DNA of 64,000 nt from an uncultured Desulfobacterales bacterium (GCA_964480485.1 CAYZOP010000001.1:431541-495540); one strand, 5' to 3'; shown: positions 4,715 through 49,549, numbered from the stretch's first letter. Translations and numbers: made by a program. Notes: generated from the sequence alone by a model not told the origin.

Positions 4715-6370
4715 ATGCGGTTGGTGAAGATCTATGACACGACCTTACGGGACGGCACCCAGGCGGAGGAGTTTTCCCTGTCCCTGGCGGACAAGATCCG
4801 GGTGGCCCGCAAGTTGGCGCAGTTGGGGGTGCACTACATCGAGGGCGGCTGGCCGGGATCCAACCCCAAGGATAAAGAGTTCTTCACGGAAATCCGCAAT
4901 TATGATTTGGGGAGCGCCCGCGTCGCCGCCTTCGGCTCCACCCATCACAAGGACAGCGCCCCGGAGCAGGACCTGAACACCCAGGAACTGGTGAAGAGCC
5001 GGGCCCCGGTGATCACCATTTTCGGCAAGTCCTCCCTGTTCCAGGTGCGGGAGATCCTCCAAACCACCCCGGAGCGCAACCTGGAGCTCATCACCAACTC
5101 CCTGGCCTACCTCAAGAATTTTTCCGAGGAACTCTTTTACGACGCCGAGCATTTTTTTGACGCCTTTCAGGAAGACCGGAATTATGCCTTGCGGACCCTG
5201 GAGGCGGCGCTGGCCGGCGGCGCCCATTGCCTGGTGCTGTGCGACACCAACGGCGGCACCCTCACCTCGGAGCTGGCGGAGATCATCAAGGCGGTGAAAG
5301 AGCGTTTTCCCCAGGTTCCTTTGGGGATCCACGCCCACAATGACTCGGAGCTGGCGGTGGCCAACTCCCTGGCCGCGGTGGAGCTGGGCTGCGACCAGGT
5401 GCAGGGCACCATCAACGGCGTGGGTGAGCGCTGCGGCAACGCCAACCTGTGCTCCATCATCGCCAACCTGAAGCTGAAGATGGGGCTGGACTGCATCAGT
5501 GACGAGAACCTGCGGAAACTCAGGGAGGTGTCCCAGTTTATTTACGAGCTGGCCAATGTGCGGCCCAACCGCTACCAGCCTTTTGTGGGCCGCAGCGCCT
5601 TCGCCCACAAGGGCGGGGTCCACGCCGCCGCGGTGAAGCGCAACCCCCGGGCCTACGAGCACATCGACCCGGAGCGGGTGGGGAACGTCCGGCGCATCCC
5701 GGTCTCCGACCTTTCCGGCAAGGGGAACATCCTTCTCAAGGCCCAGGAGCTGGGGCTGGAGCCCACCACCCACGACGCCCAGGTGCGGCAGGCTTATGAG
5801 AAACTGCGGCCCATCCTCATGATGGGTGAACAGAAACTGCCCCCCCACGACACCAACGTCAAGTTCATCCTGGACCGGGTCAAGGACCTGGAGGCCCAGG
5901 GCTATCAGTTCGAGGCTGCGGAGGCTTCTCTGGAGTTGTTGGTGCGGGCGGCGCTGGGTCAGCACAAAGACTTTTTCCGCCTCCAGAGCTACCGGGTCAT
6001 CGACCAGAAGGGAGGGCAGGATGAGCCGCCCCTGCCGGAGGCCACCATCCGGGTGCACGTGGGCCTGCACGAAGTTCACACTGCGGCGGTGGGGAACGGC
6101 CCGGTGGACGCCCTGTACAACGCCTTGCTGAAGGCCCTGGTGCGCTTCTATCCCCGGCTCATGGAAGTGAGCCTGGAGGACTACAAGGTGCGGGTCCTCC
6201 CCGGCATGCACGGCACCAGCGCCAAGGTGCGGGTTTTCGTGGAGTCCCGGGACGCCACCGACTGGTGGGGGACCATCGGCGTCTCCCACGATATCATCGA
6301 GGCCTCCTGGCAGGCTCTGGTGGACAGCATCAATTACAAGCTCTTCAAGGACGAACAACGGTCGCACTGA
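4715..6370 (+). CDS. cimA: (R)-citramalate synthase (LeuA/CimA family, long form with C-terminal regulatory domain)
   Basis: It has IYDTTLRDGTQAE, HAHNDSELAVANSLAAV and a C-terminal LeuA-dimer-like domain. It is distinct from the bona fide leuA at 44568..46118. The CimA versus LeuA2 assignment rests on overall similarity pattern only. Confidence 0.85.
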   Translation: MRLVKIYDTTLRDGTQAEEFSLSLADKIRVARKLAQLGVHYIEGGWPGSNPKDKEFFTEIRNYDLGSARVAAFGSTHHKDSAPEQDLNTQELVKSRAPVITIFGKSSLFQVREILQTTPERNLELITNSLAYLKNFSEELFYDAEHFFDAFQEDRNYALRTLEAALAGGAHCLVLCDTNGGTLTSELAEIIKAVKERFPQVPLGIHAHNDSELAVANSLAAVELGCDQVQGTINGVGERCGNANLCSIIANLKLKMGLDCISDENLRKLREVSQFIYELANVRPNRYQPFVGRSAFAHKGGVHAAAVKRNPRAYEHIDPERVGNVRRIPVSDLSGKGNILLKAQELGLEPTTHDAQVRQAYEKLRPILMMGEQKLPPHDTNVKFILDRVKDLEAQGYQFEAAEASLELLVRAALGQHKDFFRLQSYRVIDQKGGQDEPPLPEATIRVHVGLHEVHTAAVGNGPVDALYNALLKALVRFYPRLMEVSLEDYKVRVLPGMHGTSAKVRVFVESRDATDWWGTIGVSHDIIEASWQALVDSINYKLFKDEQRSH

Positions 6371-21715: not shown

Positions 21716-23452
21716 CTAGCAGGCGGCTCCCAGGGTATCCCAGATGAAGGCCAGGATGCCGGCCAGCACCATATTACCCTCCACCAGGGACTCCAACATC
21801 AGGCCGGACTCCATGAGGTCCAGGCGATACAGGGTCAGATATGCCAGGGCATAGAGGCCCCCCAGGCTCAGGACATAGCCCAGGGAGGGGACCAGCCCGC
21901 TTACGGCGGCAACAAGCAAGGCCGCGGCAAAGACCAGGCATCCCAGGGACAGGAGGTTCAAGGTGCGCCGGCGCCCCAGAGCGATGGCCAGGGTCTCTTT
22001 GCCCACCACCCGGTCCCCTTCGATGGCCAGAATCTCAAAGAGACCGGAGCGGATGAAGACCAGGCCGAAGACAAAGAGGAAGGCCACCACGGTGGCAGCG
22101 CTCAGGGGGCGCTCCGAGCAGACCACCGGGATCAGGGCCGCCAGCACGCCCCAGGCCAGGGAGGTGAAGACCGTCTTGGAGCCGGGGATCTCCCGCAGCG
22201 CTCCGATGCGGGTGAGGGCTGCCACGGACTCCGGCACGATCTTGAAATTATAGACCAGGCCCAGACCGCTCATGAGCAGCAGGAAGGCAAAGGCCACCGG
22301 TCCCAACACCAGCCCCAGCCCCAGGGCGGCCAGGGCCGAAGCGGCCCCGCTCACCAGCAGAAACTGCCGGTGCCGCCCGTAGAACATGGACTGCACCGGG
22401 TCATTGAGCTTGGAGGCCGCATCGGTGAAATGGTTGAGGATGTGCATGGCGTAAATATAGAAAAACGCCACGAAAAAATACTTCCACTGCGGCTGCACCT
22501 GTTGCAGCAGGGAGGAGGTGTAGCTCAGGCAGCCGGCGCCCAGGGCCACATAGAGGTTGGACTTGAGAAAGAAGCGCCAGACACGATAGAGATAGTTGGC
22601 CAGGGACCCCGGTTTGAAGGCCCAGGCGTGCTTCAGGGTGCTCACCACGTTGCTGATGAGCCAGTGGGGGGTGGAGGCGCCGGCGGTAACCCCCACCACC
22701 TGGAAGCGGCTCATCTCCGCCAAGTCCAGCTCCTGCTCGGTCTCCACGTGATAGGTGGGGATACCCGTGGCCCGGGAGATTTCCACCAGGCGCTGGGTGT
22801 TGCCGCTGTTTCTCCCCCCCACCACCACAATGGCCTCCACCTGCCGGGCCAGGGACTGGATCTCGCCCTGGCGGCTGGCGGTGGCGTCACAGATGGTGTT
22901 GAAGACCTTGATATCCGGGAACCGGGCTTTGAGCTGCGCCACCCGGGCGCTGAACTGGGCTTCGCTCTGGGTGGTCTGGGCCACCACAATAACCTTGTCC
23001 AGCTCGGGCAGGGCCGCCACGTCCTCAGCGGTGGCCACCACATAGCCCCGTCCCCGGGTGTGGCCCAACAGGCCCCGCACTTCCGGGTGGTCGGCGTCGC
23101 CCACAATGACCGTGGCATAATCCTCCTGGGCCCAGCGCCGGATAATGGCCTGCACCTTGGCCACCCGGGGGCAGGTGGCGTCGATGATGCGCACCCCGGC
23201 GCCTTCCAGCTCCCGGCGCTCCTGGGGCGGAATGCCGTGGGCCCGAATCACCACCAACCCCCGGGGCCTCTGGCCCCGCTCCAGGACGCGGATGCCCCGC
23301 TCCTTCAGCAGTTCCAGGACCTGGGGATTGTGAATCAGCGGACCGTGGGTAAAAATCTCCCCCTGGTTCTGGTTGATGGCCTTGAGGACCAGTTCCATGG
23401 CCCGTTTGACACCCATGCAGAAGCCGGAGGTGCGTGCGATGATGACTTTCAT
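21716..23452 (-). CDS. ispH: Fusion protein: 4-hydroxy-3-methylbut-2-enyl diphosphate reductase (IspH) plus a C-terminal UbiA-family prenyltransferase membrane domain
   Basis: The N-terminal ~285 aa form a complete IspH with the three cluster cysteines (SGFCMGV, DATCPRV, NTICDAT) and ...TAGASTP. The ORF continues without a stop into ~290 aa with 8-9 TM helices. That part carries UbiA-like motifs: NHFTDAASKLND (an atypical first Asp-rich motif) and IEGDRVVGKETLAIALG. Confidence 0.85.
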   Translation of the reverse strand: MKVIIARTSGFCMGVKRAMELVLKAINQNQGEIFTHGPLIHNPQVLELLKERGIRVLERGQRPRGLVVIRAHGIPPQERRELEGAGVRIIDATCPRVAKVQAIIRRWAQEDYATVIVGDADHPEVRGLLGHTRGRGYVVATAEDVAALPELDKVIVVAQTTQSEAQFSARVAQLKARFPDIKVFNTICDATASRQGEIQSLARQVEAIVVVGGRNSGNTQRLVEISRATGIPTYHVETEQELDLAEMSRFQVVGVTAGASTPHWLISNVVSTLKHAWAFKPGSLANYLYRVWRFFLKSNLYVALGAGCLSYTSSLLQQVQPQWKYFFVAFFYIYAMHILNHFTDAASKLNDPVQSMFYGRHRQFLLVSGAASALAALGLGLVLGPVAFAFLLLMSGLGLVYNFKIVPESVAALTRIGALREIPGSKTVFTSLAWGVLAALIPVVCSERPLSAATVVAFLFVFGLVFIRSGLFEILAIEGDRVVGKETLAIALGRRRTLNLLSLGCLVFAAALLVAAVSGLVPSLGYVLSLGGLYALAYLTLYRLDLMESGLMLESLVEGNMVLAGILAFIWDTLGAAC

Positions 23453-23460
23453 GGCCAAGA

Positions 23461-27206: not shown

Positions 27207-27551
27207 TTCAGCCTCGCTTCAGATGTGGCCGGAACGGGCAAGCCGCCCACCGCGGGTGGAATCCGGCCCCGTCCTTGGGCATATCACCTTCAAGCCCTAA
27301 AAACAAGACGCTCCCCGGGGGGGCCAGTGCATCGTTGCGGTCCGGCAGGTCAGGGAACCAGCCCGGGGCTCTCCCGAATCTGACAACAATCGGTGCGGGG
27401 GTTCCCGTTCCCCCATCTACCCAGGGAACGGGAACCCGCAAGGTAGCCTGATGGCGAGAAATGGTCACGGGGAGGGCAAGGAATCCGGCTCCCCAAAGGT
27501 GAATTGAACGGAGGCCACCCGGGGCGGGTTTCCCCGCCCCGGCGGCATGGT

Positions 27552-29783
27552 TTACTTGGTCTCTTCCGGCGACTTGGCCTGGGGTTCCCGGGCCTCCAGC
27601 TCCTTATACCACTCGGAGTGATGCTTCTTGGCCCACTTGCGGCTCACCTTGCCGTCCACCAGCGCCCGCCAGGTGCCGGGGTTGGCGATGGTGCCCAGAT
27701 AGGCGTGGGCGACGACCGCGGCCACAAAGACCACGGCAAAGAAGCCGTGGACGGTGGACAAAAGGCAGTTGAAGGTCAGGGGCAGGCTGTTCTTGAAGAT
27801 GAGCAGGATGCCGGTGACCCCCATGATGAGGGTGAGGACCGCGGTGAACCAGAGGAAGATCTTCTGGCCGGCGTTCAGCCTGCCGGCCGGCACCTCCACT
27901 TCCCGGCCGCCCAGGTAGCCGCCCCGCTTGGCCAGCCACTCCCGGTCATAGGGGGCGAATTTGGCGTCCTTGGCCCACAGCGCCACCGCGGCGATGCCGG
28001 CGGCCACGAAGATGAGGCCCGTGACCCAGTGCACCACCACTGCGCTTTGCGGAGAACTGAAGAACATCTTTAGGAGCGTGACGTTGTTGTAGAAGAAGAT
28101 GTAACCCGTAAGGGTGAGCACCAGGAAGGAGACCATGCGGATGAGGTGCGTCCAACGTTCGGTTACGTTGAAGCGCTCGATCTCCGCCGGCTCGTAGGTG
28201 AAGTCCGCGCCTTTGGGGCCCTGGCCGGTGTAGTGCAGGGTGAGCCCGAAGACCAGGAGCAACAAGAGGATGCTCACGTAGGGCGTGAGATACGTCTGGT
28301 GGAATTGGTTGACGTAAAAGGCCCAGGGCTGGCAGCCGAAGAGTTTGCCGGAGCTGATGGTGACGGGTTTGCCGTCGGGGCCGAACATGTCGGTGACGAT
28401 CTGCCCTTTGAACATGTGGGCTTCTGAAGAGTGGCAGTCGCCGCAGCCATTGGCCCCCAGGGCCAGGCTGGCCGGGGCCACGTTGTGGTTGATGTTGAAG
28501 CCTTCGGCGTGGCCGGCCCAGGTGGTGTCCGGGCCGCTCACCAGCTCGCCCTTGTCATCCAGGTAGTACATCATGCCGCCCTTGTGGAAGAAGGGCTTCA
28601 CCTGCTGGAAGCGCTTGTTCCCCTGGAGGGTCTCCTTGAAGGCCGTCAGGGCGATCTTGATCTGCTCCGGGGTATGGAGCTCAGGTTTCTGCGGGTTCTT
28701 GGGCTTCAGTTGGGCCTTGGCCTTCTCGTAGCCCTTTTTCAGCTCCCGGGCGAACAGGGGATAGTTGATGCCGTCCTTGTCCTGGTTGCTGAAAAAGATG
28801 CTCTTAAAGCGGTTCACCGGCCAAAGCTTGCCGTGTTCATCACGCTGGTAAGAAGGATGCCAGGTGAATTCCTCCCCGATCTTCTTGGCGCCTGGGCTGG
28901 GAAGCATGGTGGGGTAGTTCACCATCATGCCGGTGGTGACGTCAAAGCCCTCAAACCCGGCGCGGTGCAGGGCCGGGATGTGGCAGACCTCGCAGGCCAG
29001 CTTTTCCAGGTGGTTGGGCCGAATGGACAGGTGCGCCGGACGGGGCGCGCCCATGTAGCCCTCTTCATGGCACTGCTTGCAGGTCTTCATCCCCACATAG
29101 TCCAGGTCGTCCCGCACCGTGGAGACGTTTTCGTCCCCCTTGGCGAACTGGTGCTGGAGTTTGGTGATCTTCCGCTTCGGGTCTTCAATGGACTGGTGGC
29201 AGTCGGTGCAGGTCATGCCCTGGAGGTTGTGGACGTCGTGGTTGACCCGGTCATCCCAGGAAAAGCCCCGCTTTTTGACGTCGGAGATGCCATGGCAGAA
29301 GACGCAGTTCTCCGCGGGCGGCGGGTACGACAGATCCAGGACGATCTTGCCGTCGTCATTGAACAGCCGTTTGTTATAAACCACTTTGGGCTGCTGGCCG
29401 TCCCGGACGAAGCCACTGACCTGGCCGATGCCCGAGGCCGCGGTGCCGGCCCACTTGTAGTTCAGCATCTTGAGCTGGCGGGTGCGTTCATTAAAGTTGT
29501 AGCCCGGCAGGTGGCAGACGAAACAGTCGGCCTCCACCACCCCGGTCTTGTCCCATTGGCTCTGAAAGTAGTCGCCGTCCAGACTCTGGGCCAGCTGCGG
29601 CTCGGCCTTGAGTCGGGTGTCGTAGCGCTTGCCGTCCCGGTCCATTTCCAGGCCGCCCCCGCCCGGGTGGCAGGAGCCGCAGGTGGGCAGATTCATGCCC
29701 TGGGGGTCCCGGGGGCCCACGCTGATCCATTCGAAGGTGGTCAGGTCAATCTGATCCGGGTGGTCGTTCTTCTTTTTCGCCAA
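27552..29783 (-). CDS. Multihaem c-type cytochrome (7 CxxCH) fused to a FdnI/HydC-type dihaem cytochrome b membrane domain (CbcL-like). It is leaderless as called and probably continuous with the upstream ORF through UGA
   Basis: The CxxCH motifs are CGSCH, CFVCH, CVFCH, CTDCH, CKQCH, CEVCH and CGDCH. The C-terminal 5 TM carry His ligands (ERWTHL, VVVHW, STVHG...VAHAY). The track start is a TTG with no SD, and there is no signal peptide. Confidence 0.85.
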   Translation of the reverse strand: MAKKKNDHPDQIDLTTFEWISVGPRDPQGMNLPTCGSCHPGGGGLEMDRDGKRYDTRLKAEPQLAQSLDGDYFQSQWDKTGVVEADCFVCHLPGYNFNERTRQLKMLNYKWAGTAASGIGQVSGFVRDGQQPKVVYNKRLFNDDGKIVLDLSYPPPAENCVFCHGISDVKKRGFSWDDRVNHDVHNLQGMTCTDCHQSIEDPKRKITKLQHQFAKGDENVSTVRDDLDYVGMKTCKQCHEEGYMGAPRPAHLSIRPNHLEKLACEVCHIPALHRAGFEGFDVTTGMMVNYPTMLPSPGAKKIGEEFTWHPSYQRDEHGKLWPVNRFKSIFFSNQDKDGINYPLFARELKKGYEKAKAQLKPKNPQKPELHTPEQIKIALTAFKETLQGNKRFQQVKPFFHKGGMMYYLDDKGELVSGPDTTWAGHAEGFNINHNVAPASLALGANGCGDCHSSEAHMFKGQIVTDMFGPDGKPVTISSGKLFGCQPWAFYVNQFHQTYLTPYVSILLLLLVFGLTLHYTGQGPKGADFTYEPAEIERFNVTERWTHLIRMVSFLVLTLTGYIFFYNNVTLLKMFFSSPQSAVVVHWVTGLIFVAAGIAAVALWAKDAKFAPYDREWLAKRGGYLGGREVEVPAGRLNAGQKIFLWFTAVLTLIMGVTGILLIFKNSLPLTFNCLLSTVHGFFAVVFVAAVVAHAYLGTIANPGTWRALVDGKVSRKWAKKHHSEWYKELEAREPQAKSPEETK

Positions 29784-29792
29784 CTGGCGAAA
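29775..29792 (-). promoter_or_regulatory. SECIS-like hairpin 9 nt downstream of the in-frame UGA
   Basis: The mRNA reads UGA-CCGCCCUCG-UUUCGCC-AGUU-GGCGAAA. This gives a perfect 7-bp stem, an apical loop containing GU, and a loop starting 16 nt after UGA. Confidence 0.4.
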
Positions 29793-29801
29793 CGAGGGCG
29801 G

Positions 29802-30122
29802 TCAGAACTTCCCCAGCATGCCGTCGGACAGGACCCAGGGCTTCTTCTGGTTGAAGTCGTCCTTGATCCGGTCCCAGCCCTGTTGGAAGTGAAAGCCCTT
29901 GGTGATTTCGTCGTAGTTGTGGCAAGCCCCGCAGGTCTGCCGGGGGCTGTAGGGCTGATCGGCGTTTTCGCCGGTTAGGGGGTTGATGGTCTTGCCATCC
30001 TCGGTTTTCAAGTGAAAGGGCACGCAGGCCCGCACCTTGGCTGCCGTACCCGGCGGCAGCAGGAGGAGCCAGCCGAGGATCACGGCCAGACACCCTCCGA
30101 CAGTGAAGAGAACTTTCTTCAT
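29802..30122 (-). CDS. Signal peptide plus mono-haem (CGACH) cytochrome c segment. It ends at an in-frame TGA 18 nt before the next ORF and is the likely N-terminus of the CbcL-like protein
   Basis: MKKVLFTVGGCLAVILGWLLLLPPGTAAK is a signal peptide, and GAGGAGGG lies upstream. The stop TGA (29802-29804) is in the same frame as the TTG at 29783. Confidence 0.75.
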   Translation of the reverse strand: MKKVLFTVGGCLAVILGWLLLLPPGTAAKVRACVPFHLKTEDGKTINPLTGENADQPYSPRQTCGACHNYDEITKGFHFQQGWDRIKDDFNQKKPWVLSDGMLGKF

Positions 30123-30269
30123 GATATGGTTACCCTCCTCGTGAGGTTTCTTGGTTCAGCGTTCAAAGTGGCCCGCAAGACCACCCCCCCTCATGATCCG
30201 CCCTCACCCCGGCCTGAGCCCCCCCAGGGGAAGAAGGCCGGGATGGGGGAGGCAACTTCTCCTCTTGCA

Positions 30270-31169
30270 CTAGGCTACCATTTGGCGGATTTCCGTCACC
30301 ACCGGCGGGATGAGGTCCGACCAGCCCAGGGGCATGAAATGAATCCCCTGCACCATGGGGGCCATCGTTTTGGCCAGCTTCAAGGTGATCTCCAGGGCCT
30401 TGTCCTTGCGGCCCTCGGGCGGCACGCCCTCCAGCTCCCTGGTAAGCCAGCGGGGCACGGTGATGCCCGAGACGTTCTCATTGATGAACTGGGCCATTTT
30501 CGGCGATTTGATCACCAGGAGCCCGTACATGATGGGTACCTTGAACTGCTCGGCCCGGCGCACGAAGCTTTCGAAGATGGCAGGGTCGAAGACCGCCTGG
30601 GTCTGGAAGAACTGGGCGCCCTGCTCCACCTTCTTTTCCATTTTCAGGAGTTGCAGGTCCAACGGCTCAAAGCCGGGATTGACCACTGCGCCCAGGGCCA
30701 GGTCGGTGGCCTGGGTGAGGGGGTGCCCTACCATGTCCCGGCCCTCGTTCAGTCCTTTGGCGATCTTGAGGAGCTGCACCGAGTCCACGTCGAAGACCGG
30801 CTTGGCCGCCACGTGGTCGCCCAGGCGGATGTGGTCGCCGGTGAGGCAAAGCACGTTGTCGATCCCCAGGGTGCAGGCGCTCATGAGTTCGCTCTGCAGA
30901 GCCAAGCGGTTGCGGTCCCGGCAGGTGATCTGGAAGAGGGGCTCCACCCCGGCCTGTTTGACCAGCACGCTGGCCGCCAGGGCCCCCAGGCGCATCACCG
31001 CGCTCTGGTTGTCGGTGACGTTCACCGCGTGAACGTAATCCTTAATGCTCAGGGCTTCCCGGACGAATTCCGGGGGCGGGCCGCCGTTGGTCCGGCTGCA
31101 GCCCTTCACCGGCCCCACTTCGCCGGTGAACACGAAGGTGCCCTTGTGGAAGAGTTCCGTGAGCTTCAT
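30270..31169 (-). CDS. metF: Methylenetetrahydrofolate reductase, acetogen/anaerobe type
   Basis: MKLTELFHKGTFVFTGEVGP..., VNVTDNQSAVMR, LCLTGDH, FFQTQAVFD. GGGAGGG lies upstream of the ATG at 31169. The upstream 133 codons of track ORF 30270..31571 are frame overlap with metV. Confidence 0.9.
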   Translation of the reverse strand: MKLTELFHKGTFVFTGEVGPVKGCSRTNGGPPPEFVREALSIKDYVHAVNVTDNQSAVMRLGALAASVLVKQAGVEPLFQITCRDRNRLALQSELMSACTLGIDNVLCLTGDHIRLGDHVAAKPVFDVDSVQLLKIAKGLNEGRDMVGHPLTQATDLALGAVVNPGFEPLDLQLLKMEKKVEQGAQFFQTQAVFDPAIFESFVRRAEQFKVPIMYGLLVIKSPKMAQFINENVSGITVPRWLTRELEGVPPEGRKDKALEITLKLAKTMAPMVQGIHFMPLGWSDLIPPVVTEIRQMVA

Positions 31170-31846
31170 GAGGCCACCCTCCCTTCCTTGATATACAACG
31201 TCCGGGGCTTGGCCATCCGGCTGAAATCCTTGGGCTCCACGTAGCGCTTCAGTTTGTCGGTCTCCCCCAGGGCCTTGAGGCGGTTGAAGATGAGGATCCA
31301 GGCGCAGTCCCGGGTGTGGTCCACCTCGCACTTGCCGGCCTCGGCGCCGCCGCAGGGGCCGTTCAGCAGGCTCTTGGCGCAGCGGGTCACCGGGCAGATG
31401 CCGCCGGTGTCGTTGAGCACACATTGCCCGCAGTCCGAGCATTCCTCCATGGCCAGGGCCCCGGGGACCACGGTGTCCAGGTGGCCCACGGAGTTGAGCC
31501 CCACCTTCACCGGTTTGGTGAGGCCGTACTGCTCGGTGAGGTAGCGGGTGATCTGCACGGCGCCGCCGCACCCCAGCACCAGGAGGGCGTCGGCCGCCTG
31601 GATTTTCTCCGTCAGGGGCTTGAGCACCGGGTCGGACTTGGCCACGTTGCAGGTGCGCTCCGGGGTGGCCTCAAAAACGATTTCCTTGCCGTGGGCTTTC
31701 AGTTCCTGGGCCAGTTGGGACACTTCCTCCACCCCGCCGGTGAGGCAGATTTTGGCGCAGCCGTCGCAGCCCACCACCGCCACCTTGCGGTAGGGCTCCA
31801 GGGCCGCCAGGACCTCCTCCAGGGGTTTTTTAGTAGTACCGATCAT
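31166..31846 (-). CDS. metV: Methylene-THF reductase-associated Cys-rich protein (MetV, MTHFR C-terminal-domain family)
   Basis: Cys clusters are present (VGCDGCAKIC, CSDCGQCVL..GGICPVTRCAK..NGPCGG...GKCE). An ATGA overlap links it to metF, and AAGGAG lies upstream. Confidence 0.85.
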   Translation of the reverse strand: MIGTTKKPLEEVLAALEPYRKVAVVGCDGCAKICLTGGVEEVSQLAQELKAHGKEIVFEATPERTCNVAKSDPVLKPLTEKIQAADALLVLGCGGAVQITRYLTEQYGLTKPVKVGLNSVGHLDTVVPGALAMEECSDCGQCVLNDTGGICPVTRCAKSLLNGPCGGAEAGKCEVDHTRDCAWILIFNRLKALGETDKLKRYVEPKDFSRMAKPRTLYIKEGRVAS

Positions 31847-32151
31847 GGACGTTCTCCTTGGTTGGCATAAGGTTGGCCCGTCCGGGGTGCCTTGTCGACC
31901 CGCAGCGGACCGTAGGCCAATTTTAGCAAAAGTGCATATGCGGTGCTATGGCCAATTGCCATAGGTGGGGTTTGTTCAGGATTGCCGGCTGACTGAAGGG
32001 TAAGCAAGAAGTCTGCCAAGATGAAAGACCCGAAGATTAACAGATAACTTACTTATATTATTCATTATTTATTATCCATGCAAAACCTCCTTGACAAAAG
32101 TTAACAATTCCCCTTAACTATTGTAAATAAATTAACAGCAATCGAGGCGCC

Positions 32152-33534
32152 ATGACCCTCCCCCAACTGGACAGCTACTGGGAAACCGTCCTGAACACCA
32201 TGATGGACGGCCTTATGGTGGTGGACCCCAATGGCGTCATCCTGGCCGCCAACCAGGCCATGGAACGGCTCACCGGGTTTTCCCGGGAGGAGCTGGTGGG
32301 CCAGCCCTGCACCATTCTCAACTGCGACACCTGCAAAGGGCTGCGTCCCCAGGAGCCCGGCAAGCAGTGCAATCTGTTCAAAAACCAGCGGGTGCAGCGC
32401 ATCCAGTGCACCCTCCTCAAGAAGGACGGCACGCCGTTGAAGTTTTTGAAAAATGCCGCGGTGCTCCGAGATGCCCAGGGGAAGGTCATTGGCGGGGTGG
32501 AGACCATGACCGACCTCACCGAGGTGCTAGCCCGGGACCTGGTCATCTGCCGCCTGCGCCACGAACTGAATCGGGAGGACTCCTTTGAGGGCCTGGTGGG
32601 CAAGTCCCCGGTGATGCGCAACCTCTTTCAACTGCTCAAGAGCGCCGCGGCCTCGGAGGCCCCGGTGATTATTTACGGCGAGTCGGGCACCGGCAAGGAG
32701 TTGGCCGCGGGGGCCATCCACCGTCTCAGCCCCCGGGCCAAAGGGCCGTTCATCAAGGTGAACAGCGCCGCCTTAAACGAGTCCCTGCTGGAGAGCGAAC
32801 TCTTCGGCCACGTCAAAGGCGCCTTCACCGGCGCCGACCGCACCCGGGTGGGGCGCTTCGAGGCAGCCCACGGCGGCTCCATCTTCCTGGACGAAATCGG
32901 CGACCTCCCCCTGGCCACCCAGGCTAAGCTCCTAAGGGTTCTCCAGGAAAAGACCATTGAAAAGGTGGGCGACCAGAAGCCCGTCAGGGTGGACGTCCGG
33001 ATCATCACCGCCACCAACCAGGACCTGGCCCGTCTCATGGCCCTGGGCCGCTTCCGGGAGGATCTCTTCTACCGGATCGGGGTCATCCCCATCAATCTGC
33101 CGCCCTTGCGGGACCGGCGGGAGGACATCCCCTTGTTGGCCGAGGCCTTTATCCGACGGGCCGCGCTCAAGGCCGACAAGCCCATCGAGAGCCTCAGCAA
33201 AGCCGCCCTGGACCTGCTCTTGGCCTATGACTGGCCGGGCAACGTCCGGGAACTGCTAAACGTCATCGACTATGCTTTCGTACTCTGCCCCGGGGGCCAG
33301 ATCGAACCCGGGCACTTGCCGGCGCACCTAAACCAGGTGGTCCCCCTGCCGGAGCGCGGCTGGCGGCCGGAGTCCCAAAGAACCAAGGCCGAACAGCGGG
33401 ACCTCCTCCTTCAGGCCCTGAATCGGACTGGAGGGAAAAAGACCGAAGCGGCGCGGCTTCTGGGGGTCAGCCGGGTCACCTTGTGGAAGTGGCTCAAGGA
33501 GCACAACCTGCACACCGAAACGGTGATCCGGTGA
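32152..33534 (+). CDS. Sigma-54-dependent transcriptional activator (PAS - AAA+ - Fis HTH)
   Basis: The N-terminal PAS domain carries a Cys cluster. The AAA+ core has [14 protein letters not shown] and ESELFGH. The C-terminal HTH is [17 protein letters not shown]. Confidence 0.92.
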
Positions 33535-44567: not shown

Positions 44568-46118
44568 TTACAATTCCTCCGGCTTCCCCAGCTTGGGGCC
44601 CATTTCCTTGGAGAACTTCAGGCGGTTCAGGCCGTTGATATAGGCCCGGGCGCTGGCAGTGACGATGTCCGGGTCCACCCCCTGGCCGGTGACGGTGTAG
44701 CCGTCGTCCTCCAGGCGCACCGACACCTCGCCCAGGGCTTCGGTGCCGCCGGTGATGGAGGACACCGAGAATTTCAGCAGCCGAGGCTTGGCCTGGGCCA
44801 GTTTGGTGATGGCCTTGTAGGTGGCGTCGATGGGGCCGTCGCCGAATTCGCTCACGGTTTTCAGCTCCCCGCCCACCCGCATCTTTACGGTGGCGCTGGG
44901 CTTCACCATGGTGCCGGTCAAGACCACCAGCTCCTCCAGCTTCAGATGTTCGGGCACCGACTTGTAGATGACCTCGGTCTCCACCAAGGATATCAGGTCT
45001 TCGTCGAACACCGTCTTCTTGCGGTCCGCCAGGTCTTTGAAGCGTACAAACACCCGATTGAGTTCGTCGTCGTTCAGGTAGAAGCCCATCTCCTGGAGCT
45101 TGGTGCGGAAGGCGTTGCGGCCGGAAAGTTTGCCCAGGGGCAGACTGGACTTTTTGATCCCCACGTCCTGGGGGGTCATAATCTCATAGGTGCTGGCCTC
45201 CTTGAGTACCCCGTCCTGGTGGATGCCGGACTCGTGGGCAAAGGCGTTGGCCCCCACGATGGCCTTGTTGGGCTGCACGATGACCCCGGTGAGTTTGCTC
45301 ACCAGGCGGCTGGTGGGAAAGAGATACTGGGTGACGATGTCGGTGTCCAGGTGAAAGAGGTCTTTGCGGGTGGTGAGGGCCATGACGATCTCTTCCAGGG
45401 AGGCGTTGCCGGCCCGTTCGCCGATGCCGTTGATGGTGCACTCCGCCTGGCGGGCGCCGTTGGCGATGGCGGCCAGGGTGTTGGCCACCGCCAGTCCCAG
45501 GTCGTTGTGGCAGTGCACCGAAATGATGGCCTTATGGATATTGGGAATGTGTTCCACCAGGTACTTGATCTTGGCGCCGAACTCGTGGGGGATGGTGTAG
45601 CCCACGGTGTCCGGGAAGTTCACCGTGGTGGCCCCGGCGTCGATGACCGCCTGGAATACCTTCGCCACATAGGCCAGGTCGCTTCTTCCCGCGTCCATGG
45701 CGGAAAATTCCACATTGGCGCAATATTTGGCGGCGTGCTTCACCGCCGCCACCGCCTGCTCCAGCACCTCTTCCCGGCTCTTTTTAAGCTGGTATTTCAG
45801 GTGAATGTCGGAGGTGGAGATGAAGGTGTGGATGCGGGGGGCGGTGGCCTCCTTAACCGCCTCCCAGGCGGCGTCGATGTCCTGGAAATTGGCCCGGGCC
45901 AGGGCGGCCACCTGGCAACCGCGGATTTCCCGGGCCACGGTCTTCACCGCCTCGAAGTCTCCCCTGGACGAGAAGGGGAACCCGGCCTCAATGACGTCCA
46001 CATTCAGGAGCTCCAACTGCCGGGCGATTTGCAGCTTCTCGTCAACATTCAGGCTGGCGCCCGGGGTCTGCTCGCCGTCCCGCAGCGTGGTGTCGAAAAT
46101 GAATACCTTTTCCGGCAT
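44568..46118 (-). CDS. leuA: 2-isopropylmalate synthase
   Basis: [32 protein letters not shown], and a C-terminal LeuA allosteric domain. GGAGGAGGA lies upstream of the ATG at 46118. Confidence 0.95.
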
Positions 46119-46146
46119 GGGAAATCCTCCTCCTCTAAAGTTGAAA

Positions 46147-46175
46147 AATATACCAGGACCGCGACCGCTTGTCAC
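46147..46175 (-). promoter_or_regulatory. Candidate internal sigma-70 promoter for leuA-leuC
   Basis: On the reverse strand, GTGACA, 17 nt, then TATATT, about 28 nt upstream of the ATG at 46118. Confidence 0.42.
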
Positions 46176-49228: not shown

Positions 49229-49549
49229 TCAATACGAGAGAATCTTGTCCGCCTTCTTCACCTGTTCATGGAGAATCTTCATATTCCCCAGTTGGATGGG
49301 GGCGGCGGCCTCCGCACCGCGGAGGGCGAGGCATTTCCCTCAGGCATAGAGGACGCCTTCGCTCAAGCCGAAGAGCTTGGCCCGTTCCCGAATGGGAAAT
49401 AGGGGGGAATCACCGGCATACAGATCGGTGGCCGGACCGTTGAGAAACACCGTGACCTCTTCCCCCTCGTTGAGGAGAACATTGGCGAACCGCAGGGCAT
49501 TCCATTTGATTTGCGGGTCCGGGGTGGAAAGCACAAGGAGCACCTGCAT
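49229..49549 (-). CDS. DsrE-like sulfur-relay family protein read through an in-frame UGA (candidate selenoprotein, U at codon 70, U-G-K-C motif)
   Basis: Track ORF 49340..49732 ends ...GLSEGVLYA-TGA. The same frame continues GKCLALRGAEAAAPIQLGNMKILHEQVKKADKILSY-TGA(49229). The joined 106-aa product has the length and layout of DsrE-like proteins, with the UGA where they carry the conserved Cys. Confidence 0.68.
49307..49327 (-). promoter_or_regulatory. SECIS-like hairpin downstream of the DsrE-like UGA
   Basis: The mRNA reads UGA-N14-CCUCCGC-GGU-GCGGAGG. This is a 7-bp GC-rich stem extendable by 2 bp, with GGU in the apical loop about 21 nt after UGA. Confidence 0.5.

Follow-up and report, generated by a model that had tools for sequence, protein, structure and literature searches.

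The locus and its reading frame

This analysis concerns a stretch of 64,000 nucleotides (64 kb) from an uncultured Desulfobacterales bacterium (GCA_964480485.1, CAYZOP010000001.1:431541-495540), which is referred to in its full length as the window. At positions 27552 to 30122 on its minus strand, the window contains a multihaem cytochrome gene whose reading frame is interrupted by a TGA codon. A preliminary description of the DNA had noticed that this in-frame UGA and a hairpin behind it join a short open reading frame (ORF), encoding a signal peptide and one haem motif, to a leaderless ORF encoding seven haem motifs and a cytochrome b domain. Selenocysteine (Sec) or a fresh nonsense mutation had been offered as explanations.

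The ATG at 30122-30120 opens an ORF of 106 codons, which comprises a signal peptide and a CGACH motif and ends with ...SDGMLGKF directly in front of the TGA at 29804-29802. The TGA is followed by six sense codons (CCG CCC TCG TTT CGC CAG, translated as PPSFRQ) and then by a TTG at 29783-29781, which lies in frame with the TGA and from which the frame remains open down to the TAA at 27554-27552. While the ATG is preceded by the Shine-Dalgarno sequence GGAGG, inspection of the sequence upstream of the TTG revealed no comparable motif. In all these points the earlier account of the locus agrees with our reading. Gene callers split the locus into proteins of 106 aa and 743 aa, in the source contigs as well, the 743-codon ORF being the annotated downstream piece. 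Translation across the TGA yields a product of 856 aa with eight CxxCH motifs, one before and seven after the TGA (residues 64-68, 148-152, 200-204, 273-277, 305-309, 348-352, 377-381 and 560-564). The features of the locus are as follows:

27552..30122, minus strand: complete coding region of one predicted selenoprotein precursor of 856 aa, from the ATG at 30122 via the in-frame UGA to the TAA at 27552-27554
30134..30138, minus strand: Shine-Dalgarno sequence GGAGG upstream of the ATG, read from the sequence
30039..30122, minus strand: signal peptide of the Sec export type, residues 1-28 in the translation (MKK, hydrophobic core, end ...GTAA), with the predicted cleavage site before the following K
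30024..30026, minus strand: codon of Cys33, a candidate axial haem ligand; Cys or His in 79/79 aligned homologues
28329..30038, minus strand: periplasmic octahaem cytochrome c domain, residues 29-598, with the eight CxxCH motifs
29802..29804, minus strand: UGA codon 107, predicted to be read as selenocysteine (GKF-U-PPSFRQLAKK); conserved TGA, with Cys, Tyr, Met or Ser in homologues
29775..29792, minus strand: putative selenocysteine insertion sequence (SECIS) hairpin UUUCGCC-AGUU-GGCGAAA within the FRQLAK codons, assigned from SECIS criteria, comparison and compensatory variants
28227..28328, minus strand: extra transmembrane helix, residues 599-632, from the secondary structure of an AlphaFold2 (AF2) model, with a topology predicted from E. 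coli FdnI
27567..28181, minus strand: four-helix dihaem cytochrome b domain of the FdnI/HydC type, residues 648-852, from domain, PDB and fold matches

The C-terminal part of the read-through product is well described by known families. Residues 650-822 match Pfam Ni_hydr_CYTB above the cut-off, and residues 648-844 match the NCBIfam formate dehydrogenase gamma family TIGR01583 with 135.3 bits (cut-off 115.85). Over the C-terminal 205 residues, E. coli FdnI (1kqf_C) was found with an E-value of 5e-23 in a search of the PDB by sequence and with a TM-score of 0.84 at 28% identity in a Foldseek alignment. H659, H698, H792 and H806 are the candidate ligands of the haems b. The AF2 model, with a pLDDT (predicted local distance difference test score) of 86.9, shows a helix at residues 12-21 with low pLDDT across residues 1-30 in the region of the signal peptide, the long helix 599-632, and four more helices behind it. 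The position of this first transmembrane helix fits the earlier statement that the 743-aa part, with its seven CxxCH motifs, has no hydrophobic segment before about its residue 505. Altogether, motif, domain and fold matches bear out an architecture of eight haems c plus an FdnI/HydC-type dihaem b domain, for which the label "CbcL-like" used before is appropriate. In the PDB search and in Foldseek, the haem-c domain showed no relative at E < 1e-3 by sequence or fold, all matches being confined to the FdnI domain, and residue 107 therefore cannot be placed by homology.

Conservation of the TGA codon

A scan in which each species was represented by one genome gave 80 loci. Precisely this codon is TGA in 35 sequences, namely in 33 of these 80 loci, in the locus L001 and in the window. 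The metagenome-assembled genomes (MAGs) carrying it belong to Desulfobaccales, Syntrophobacterales, Syntrophales, Desulfobulbaceae, Desulfobacterales, Leptospirales and Delongbacteria, and the cultured Fundidesulfovibrio agrisoli SG106 is also among the carriers of the main clade. The codon is likewise present in the divergent loci L079, L085 and L086. The window is 100% identical to a metagenome contig of the Joint Genome Institute (JGI), and L170, a second and independent assembly of the organism from another sample, contains the same TGA followed by the same hairpin.

At E <= 1e-3, an exhaustive phmmer search with the 106-aa ORF yielded 308 representatives. The new entries listed comprise 144 representatives of the N-terminal ORF at 50% identity; 49 of these stop precisely at the residue preceding the TGA, and both of those that were fetched (L085 and L086) possess the TGA codon. 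A scan of metagenomes revealed a second subfamily with the pattern ...GMYGK[WH]-U-[PL][PA]SxDSSQLA[KR]K, for which TGA occupies the site in 50 of 79 analysable metagenome loci. In sum, more than 85 loci spanning about 40-90% protein identity carry TGA, and in the main clade as well as in subfamily 2 a stop at the site is always TGA, never TAA or TAG. Since TGA also ends five of the ten Pfam-supported genes of the window, the standard genetic code applies. In a neighbour-joining tree, the Sec forms stand on several deep branches (main clade, L030, L043 and L079), all with the same apex sequence of the hairpin. This pattern is compatible with an ancestral Sec that was then repeatedly replaced.

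Translation across the UGA

Each homologue that lacks the TGA is one protein of about 840-865 aa, colinear over the junction, and the read-through products of the TGA loci match these proteins in length and in the eight haem motifs. An alignment of orthologues, which had been proposed as a check, shows Cys or other sense codons at the site within full-length proteins, and orthologues split into two genes, each with an export signal of its own, were not seen. In the main clade, codons +1 to +3 behind the TGA encode Pro-Pro-Ser in 32-33 of 33 distinct sequences, using three to four synonymous codons each; L043 is the exception, with Leu-Phe at the first two positions. Since these codons vary only synonymously, they are translated, and an untranslated spacer would behave otherwise.

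Haem c is attached to its apoprotein in the periplasm. No signal peptide was found on the downstream part in any TGA locus examined, and the first hydrophobic helix of the 743-aa part follows only about 490 residues after its start. Due to the missing export signal and the late first helix, the 743-aa part alone could not bring its seven haem-c sites to the periplasm.

The SECIS-type hairpin

The hairpin was recovered at 29792-29775 with the geometry given before, i.e. starting 9 nt past the UGA with its loop 16 nt past it. It comprises a stem of 7 bp and a loop of 4 nt, with a free energy of -8.4 to -8.8 kcal/mol. The model for bacterial SECIS elements specifies a loop of 3-9 nt, a stem of 4-16 bp, a distance of 16-37 nt from the UGA, a minimum free energy of -7.5 kcal/mol or lower, and a G within the first two loop positions that is followed by G or U (PMC13188914). 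With a 4-nt loop, a 7-bp stem, G-U at loop positions 2-3 and a distance of 16 nt, the hairpin lies within all of these limits. Rfam gave no SECIS or other family, neither in a permissive search at the site nor in a search of the whole window at gathering thresholds.

A comparison of the loci shows a strict association of the hairpin with the TGA codon. All 35 TGA loci possess the 18-nt hairpin, compared to none of the 44 non-TGA loci (Fisher p = 3e-23), although many of these 44 encode the identical peptide FRQLAK. At codons +4 to +8 (F-R-Q-L-A), the string CGC CAG TTG GCG is invariant in the 33 distinct main-clade sequences, and codon +4 is TTT in 31 of them and TAT (Tyr) in the other two. 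Four of these five codons are minority codons in the window, with TTG accounting for 11% of Leu, GCG for 21% of Ala, TTT for 31% of Phe and CGC for 33% of Arg. From codon usage alone, the exact string of six codons, including the usual AAA (Lys) at +9, would be expected with p ~5e-4.

In subfamily 2, the apex GCC-AGUU-GGC lies 22 nt past the UGA and occurs in 44 of 47 TGA loci compared to 2 of 28 sense loci (p = 1e-14). The sense-codon sisters mostly read CAA, by which the G of the loop is lost. L079 and L086 also keep the apex 6 nt farther from the UGA, at 22 nt. Changes on both sides of the stem were found in L085, where UUCCUGC-AGGUU-GCGGGAA differs in three pairs and encodes FLQVAGI, while in L086 one U-A pair is replaced by C-G.

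Probable selenocysteine decoding in the genome

The window contains a second gene with an in-frame TGA, to which the preliminary description had pointed as an independent sign of Sec decoding:

49229-49549, minus strand: DsrE-like selenoprotein gene between ilvN and ilvC, with an in-frame TGA in a U-G-K-C motif

The TGA lies within a UxxC motif (...VLYA, TGA, GKCLALRG), and the read-through product fits Pfam DsrE end to end. Downstream of the UGA, a GC-rich hairpin with a GGU loop was found (CCUCCGC-GGU-GCGGAGG). DsrE-like proteins with UxxC are a catalogued selenoprotein family (PMC13188914). Among the homologue clusters of this ORF, 40 of 42 are 69 aa long and end at the position of its TGA, so that systematic truncation in public records affects this known family, too. 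By its sequence, the DsrE-like gene independently supports Sec decoding in this genome.

The ilv/leu cluster that holds this gene also contains one of two paralogous genes of the LeuA/CimA type (HMGL-like plus LeuA_dimer), which are located at 4715-6370 on the plus strand and at 44568-46175 on the minus strand of the window.

Residues 33 and 107

The states of residues 33 and 107 were counted over 79 aligned sequences. Cys/Sec is the most frequent combination (35 of 79), followed by His/Tyr (25 of 79), Cys/Cys (8 of 79) and His/Cys (5 of 79), while the remaining 6 of 79 are singleton combinations. Position 107 accordingly comprises 13 Cys and 25 Tyr, and the sense-codon sisters of subfamily 2 have Ser, Met, Thr, Leu, Val or Cys at the site. 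Sec107 lies in the loop between haem motifs 1 and 2.

Six His residues outside the motifs are invariant (78, 298, 324, 364, 371 and 546). Together with the Cys/His column at 33, they give seven universal candidates for the sixth ligands of eight haems. Residue 81 covaries with the class, Gln going together with Cys33 and Met with His33. Since the Sec class also keeps a Met102 and a His513 of its own, ligand counting cannot assign the role of Sec107.

Alternative explanations

A lone in-frame stop codon in one sequence would look like a pseudogene, a recent nonsense mutation, or a sequencing or assembly error at 29802-29804, and the long-read locus L001 indeed contains an additional disruption of the frame further downstream. 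Against this, the identical TGA in an independent metagenome assembly (L170), its presence in 35 genome loci and 50 metagenome loci over a wide range of protein identity, the exclusive use of TGA, and the purifying selection that still acts on both flanks exclude the fresh nonsense mutation or sequencing error considered before; the probability of any such origin is negligible. More has to be said about genuine termination at the UGA, which would give a secreted mono-haem cytochrome of 106 aa and, by re-initiation at the TTG at 29783, a second protein of 743 aa, with the hairpin serving translational coupling or mRNA stability. Every gene caller and every public record annotates the locus in this way, and TTG is a legal start codon. 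The resulting 743-aa product, however, would comprise seven CxxCH motifs behind neither an export signal nor an early helix, and its TTG is not preceded by a Shine-Dalgarno sequence. Moreover, the codons between TGA and TTG are under purifying selection at the amino-acid level, which points to their translation, the non-TGA homologues run across the junction as one protein of about 850 aa, and in L079, L086 and subfamily 2 no start codon is conserved at the matching place. Termination is consequently regarded as highly improbable.

Programmed read-through of the UGA without selenium, in which a near-cognate tRNA (Trp, Cys or Arg) stimulated by the hairpin would lead to the full-length cytochrome, explains the conserved UGA, the hairpin and the complete frame equally well at the level of DNA, and no sel genes were observed within the window. 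Still, the hairpin shows features of the SelB type, with a G followed by U/G early in a small apical loop at 16-22 nt from the UGA, and it is this loop G that is lost in the sense-codon sisters. In addition, the same window holds the catalogued DsrE-like UxxC selenoprotein gene with a hairpin of its own, and for a lineage in need of Trp or Cys at this position an ordinary sense codon would do, as it does for the Cys-type relatives. The carriers, furthermore, belong to Desulfobacterota lineages that are known as heavy users of Sec. Selenium-free read-through is hence assigned a small residual probability.

Several observations weigh against a selenocysteine codon with a functional role. Residues such as Tyr, Ser, Met, Thr and Leu, which occur at the site besides Cys, are atypical for a catalytic Sec/Cys position, and around residue 107 neither a UxxC nor a CxxU motif is present. 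An obligatory couple of Cys33 and Sec107, either as selenenylsulfide or with a Cys-ligated haem as in the selenoprotein MccSep, holds in 35/35 genome loci; it was rejected, since the UGA occurs together with His33 in subfamily 2 and in many divergent N-terminal ORFs. The AF2 model, which was built without haems, reaches a pLDDT of only about 65 around residue 107. With regard to the hairpin, a single-sequence fold of the UGA region is unremarkable (z = -0.73), and the significance of the element therefore derives from the comparison of loci. The hairpin is short (7 bp), and its spacing of 16 nt from the UGA is the lower limit of the accepted range. Its stem is invariant in the main clade, where RNAalifold found no compensatory pairs, six changes from U-A to U-G and two breaks, and compensatory cases are limited to a few divergent loci. 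Finally, none of the 27 window ORFs scanned by Pfam is selA, selB or selD, and ARAGORN detected no tRNA and no tRNA-Sec within the 64-kb window.

Nonetheless, the conserved TGA, the orthologues with sense codons and the SECIS geometry support the selenocysteine alternative. Based on these comparisons, the TGA at 29802-29804 is very probably a selenocysteine codon, and the locus very probably has the architecture of one single polypeptide of 856 aa. As judged from its sequence, the predicted protein represents a new family of selenoproteins that makes use of a known mechanism of recoding.

Gene neighbourhood and regulation

In the window, a gene for a PAS/sigma-54 enhancer-binding protein (EBP) on the plus strand is followed divergently by metV, metF, the cytochrome gene, a glycosyltransferase-like gene, a 244-aa ORF and PNP_UDP_1. 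The regulatory features are:

32152..33534, plus strand: divergent PAS/sigma-54 enhancer-binding protein, adjoining the cytochrome gene in at least 12 TGA loci
32003..32018, minus strand: sigma-54 promoter-like site TGGCAGACTTCTTGCT with 1 mismatch, oriented to metV-metF-cytochrome
32137..32152, minus strand: sigma-54 promoter-like site TGGCGCCTCGATTGCT with 1 mismatch, in the same orientation as the site at 32003..32018

Both sites lie between the EBP gene and metV and are the only matches with one mismatch in the 64 kb. Counted over the whole window, matches to the sigma-54 consensus are no more numerous than expected by chance. metV (DUF5981) and metF (methylene-tetrahydrofolate reductase), at 30270-31846 on the minus strand, immediately precede the cytochrome gene in the same orientation and stand behind the putative sigma-54 promoter. 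This synteny is shared by L001, L025 and L029, which makes four loci in all. A link between methylene-tetrahydrofolate reductase and the cytochrome would bear on energy coupling in sulfate reducers with the Wood-Ljungdahl pathway. At the other end of the cytochrome gene, a GC-rich inverted repeat (CCGGGGCGGGG-AAA-CCCCGCCCCGG, 27519-27542, minus strand) lies 10 nt past the TAA. No T-run follows, and the repeat could be a terminator-like or an mRNA-stabilising hairpin.

In eight TGA loci, a DsrE gene (CxxC) directly adjoins the cytochrome gene. Three loci from Desulfovibrionales (L002, L024 and L027) show the order EBP on the minus strand, a Tat (twin-arginine translocation)-exported four-cluster FeS protein resembling OhcB on the plus strand, a gap of about 420 nt and the cytochrome; in L002, the gap contains an ORF of 139 aa. 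The His/Tyr relatives, which belong to Acidobacteriota, Zixibacteria, Gemmatimonadota and Ignavibacteria, adjoin other large multihaem cytochromes, which suggests, on the basis of gene content, that these neighbourhoods may be extracellular electron transfer clusters. For subfamily 2, clustering of the neighbourhoods revealed no informative conserved partner.

Some further observations were made in these loci. Upstream of the His/Tyr genes of Zixibacteria, Acidobacteriota and Ignavibacteria, a 941-aa fusion of multihaem cytochrome c and cytochrome b is encoded (L040 1101-3926, and neighbours in L034-L068), and these loci are also preceded by a multihaem cytochrome of 332 aa and by further conserved unannotated ORFs. 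In the long-read assembly L001 (6001-8221), the orthologue is broken a second time into pieces of 393 aa and 332 aa, the first of which has a scrambled C-terminus. This second break is probably an assembly frameshift error and not biology. Elsewhere in the window, a single ORF of 580 aa (21716-23458, minus strand) comprises a complete LytB/IspH (5-276) and a UbiA-type prenyltransferase (331-545). It is an apparent fusion of the last enzyme of the MEP (methylerythritol phosphate) pathway with a membrane prenyltransferase, and the gene caller of the source contig also reports it as one gene, of 578 aa.

Comparison with known systems

Among characterized proteins, MccSep/ExtKL (GSU2937-2936) from Geobacter sulfurreducens, a multihaem c selenoprotein with polysulfide reductase activity (PDB 9wt8/9wt9), is the obvious candidate for a comparison; its Sec325 is located beside a haem ligated by Cys239 (PMC13510729). 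Both proteins comprise a periplasmic multihaem c part, annotators have split their genes at an in-frame UGA with a SECIS-like hairpin behind it, members with Sec occur side by side with members with Cys, the carriers are mainly Desulfobacterota, and a UxxC motif is missing. While the Sec of MccSep works beside a haem, such a site would have to be assumed for residue 107. The differences are considerable. MccSep is a soluble, tetrameric protein of about 450 aa with five haems, a C-terminal Ig-like domain and U325 near the C-terminus in a D-G-U-P loop, whereas the protein described here has eight haems, a fused membrane cytochrome b, 856 aa and U107 near the N-terminus. The structures 9wt8/9wt9 were present in the searched PDB set and gave no match with this protein at E <= 1, and the family NF040886 was not matched either. 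Due to the lacking sequence match, the absence of NF040886 and the eight haems, membership in MccSep/ExtKL was rejected. MccSep, to which neither sequence nor architecture relates the predicted selenoprotein, is its closest functional precedent.

The catalogue of 119 prokaryotic selenoprotein families from May 2026 lists three that are related to haem, namely ExtKL, the GSU2204 family and an octahaem cytochrome of the OTR family (PMC13188914). The latter two (NF041027 and TIGR04315) resemble the present protein as c-type cytochromes with one Sec and no CxxU or UxxC motif, one of them being octahaem as well (PMC13188914). For TIGR04315, a score of 26.9 bits was obtained compared to a cut-off of 375, from a local match of residues 267-388 only, and NF041027 showed no match. 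None of the three haem-related families in this catalogue thus matches the protein.

The architecture corresponds to CbcL/MtrH/MtoC, which are inner-membrane quinol oxidases or quinone reductases with 3-23 haem motifs and 416-1034 aa (PMC6295460). In accordance with the definition given there, the N-terminal part is a periplasmic domain with multiple haems c and is fused to a dihaem b domain of the HydC/FdnI-like type at the C-terminus, and the non-Sec relatives adjoin large cytochromes as in extracellular electron transfer clusters. Geobacter CbcL (GSU0274), to which the protein had been likened by architecture, contains nine CxxCH motifs instead of eight. Sec in the CbcL family is mentioned neither in PMC6295460 nor in the selenoprotein catalogue PMC13188914.

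A further system is the Ohc complex OhcBAC of Desulfovibrio vulgaris with the sigma-54 regulator DVU3142 (PMC4641369). It likewise combines a periplasmic octahaem cytochrome c with a haem-b membrane protein, a divergent single-component sigma-54 EBP is found in both cases, and the gene arrangement in L002, L024 and L027 mirrors the ohcBAC operon with DVU3142 (PMC4641369). The window itself contains the EBP and the two sigma-54-like sites but no OhcB-like gene, which was found in those three loci only; here, the c and b parts form one polypeptide, and metV-metF lie between the EBP and the cytochrome genes. No report of Sec in OhcA was found. By gene content and regulation, the cytochrome probably corresponds to the OhcA-OhcC pair of sulfate reducers in fused form, and the Ohc complex may be a closer relative than Geobacter CbcL.

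With FdnI (1kqf_C), the protein shares the four-helix dihaem b domain and the four conserved His. In contrast to FdnI, the domain is fused to an octahaem cytochrome, and no FdnG/FdnH partner is encoded nearby, the neighbours being metV, metF, the glycosyltransferase-like gene and PNP_UDP_1. The public name "formate dehydrogenase subunit gamma" is therefore a misnomer at the level of the domain.

Proposed function of the predicted selenoprotein

From the comparative evidence, the following mechanism is proposed. The hairpin starting 9 nt downstream of the UGA would recruit SelB.GTP.Sec-tRNA(Sec), and Sec would be inserted at residue 107, which would lead to one precursor of 856 aa rather than to products of 106 aa and 743 aa. 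The signal peptide would direct the octahaem c domain (about residues 29-598) to the periplasm, presumably via the Sec export pathway and with Ccm-type attachment of the haems. Helix 599-632 would then lead the chain out of the periplasm and across the membrane to the FdnI-like domain, whose N-terminus would be cytoplasmic. As a result, the periplasmic haems c could be wired to the menaquinone pool via the FdnI-type dihaem b within one polypeptide.

Most residues found at the site are able to ligate haem iron or to take part in redox chemistry (U, C, Y and M), which argues for a functional role. Further arguments for such a role are the scarcity of sixth ligands, with only the six invariant His and column 33 for eight haems, the covariation of residue 81 with the class, the DsrE (CxxC) gene next to the cytochrome gene in eight Sec loci, and the precedent of MccSep, whose Sec lies beside a Cys-ligated haem. 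Sec107 is most likely a functional redox residue at or beside a haem. Two forms of such a site come into consideration, each of them rather unlikely when taken singly: Sec107 might act as a nucleophile beside an unusually ligated haem, in analogy to MccSep, or it might itself be the sixth ligand of a haem. The Sec-type members would act on a periplasmic substrate, possibly a sulfur or selenium compound, either as enzymes linked to quinone or as gates of very low potential. The Tyr homologues, whose gene clusters look like systems for extracellular electron transfer, would merely conduct electrons.

As a tentative proposal, in which we place less than even confidence, a haem-centred Sec107 site, with the selenolate as ligand or with a nucleophile over a haem ligated by Cys33 or His33, could make the protein a membrane chalcogen oxidoreductase coupled to the quinone pool. 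If this were true, polysulfide, sulfur or a selenium oxyanion would be its substrates, and, after MccSep, haem and selenium would have been combined into a catalyst a second time and independently. With a selenolate ligand, it would also be the first case of a Sec-ligated haem in nature that we know of. Under this proposal, the forms with Tyr, Met or Ser would be derived, purely electron-conducting versions for extracellular electron transfer.

Implications for annotation and anaerobic respiration

The family comprises 1308 matches at E <= 1e-20. For all 82 best homologues (54-90% identity), the public records start after the TGA and consequently lack the signal peptide, haem 1 and Sec, and they are named "formate dehydrogenase subunit gamma" or "cytochrome b/b6 domain-containing protein". 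Since these records are truncated and misnamed, metabolic reconstructions of sulfate reducers and syntrophs misread them.

The family is not included in the catalogue of 119 families (PMC13188914, May 2026). With it, the list, in which small proteins resembling thiol oxidoreductases prevail, would gain a large respiratory protein bound to the membrane. The family would also provide a testable handle on the function of complexes of the Ohc/CbcL type, and the cultured carriers Fundidesulfovibrio agrisoli, F. soli and F. magnetotacticus make the prediction directly testable. The first mechanistic study of a haem/Sec enzyme, that of MccSep, dates from August 2026 (PMC13510729). A second, unrelated multihaem selenoprotein that is wired to the quinone pool would suggest that the combination of Sec and haem chemistry is recurrent in anaerobic respiration.

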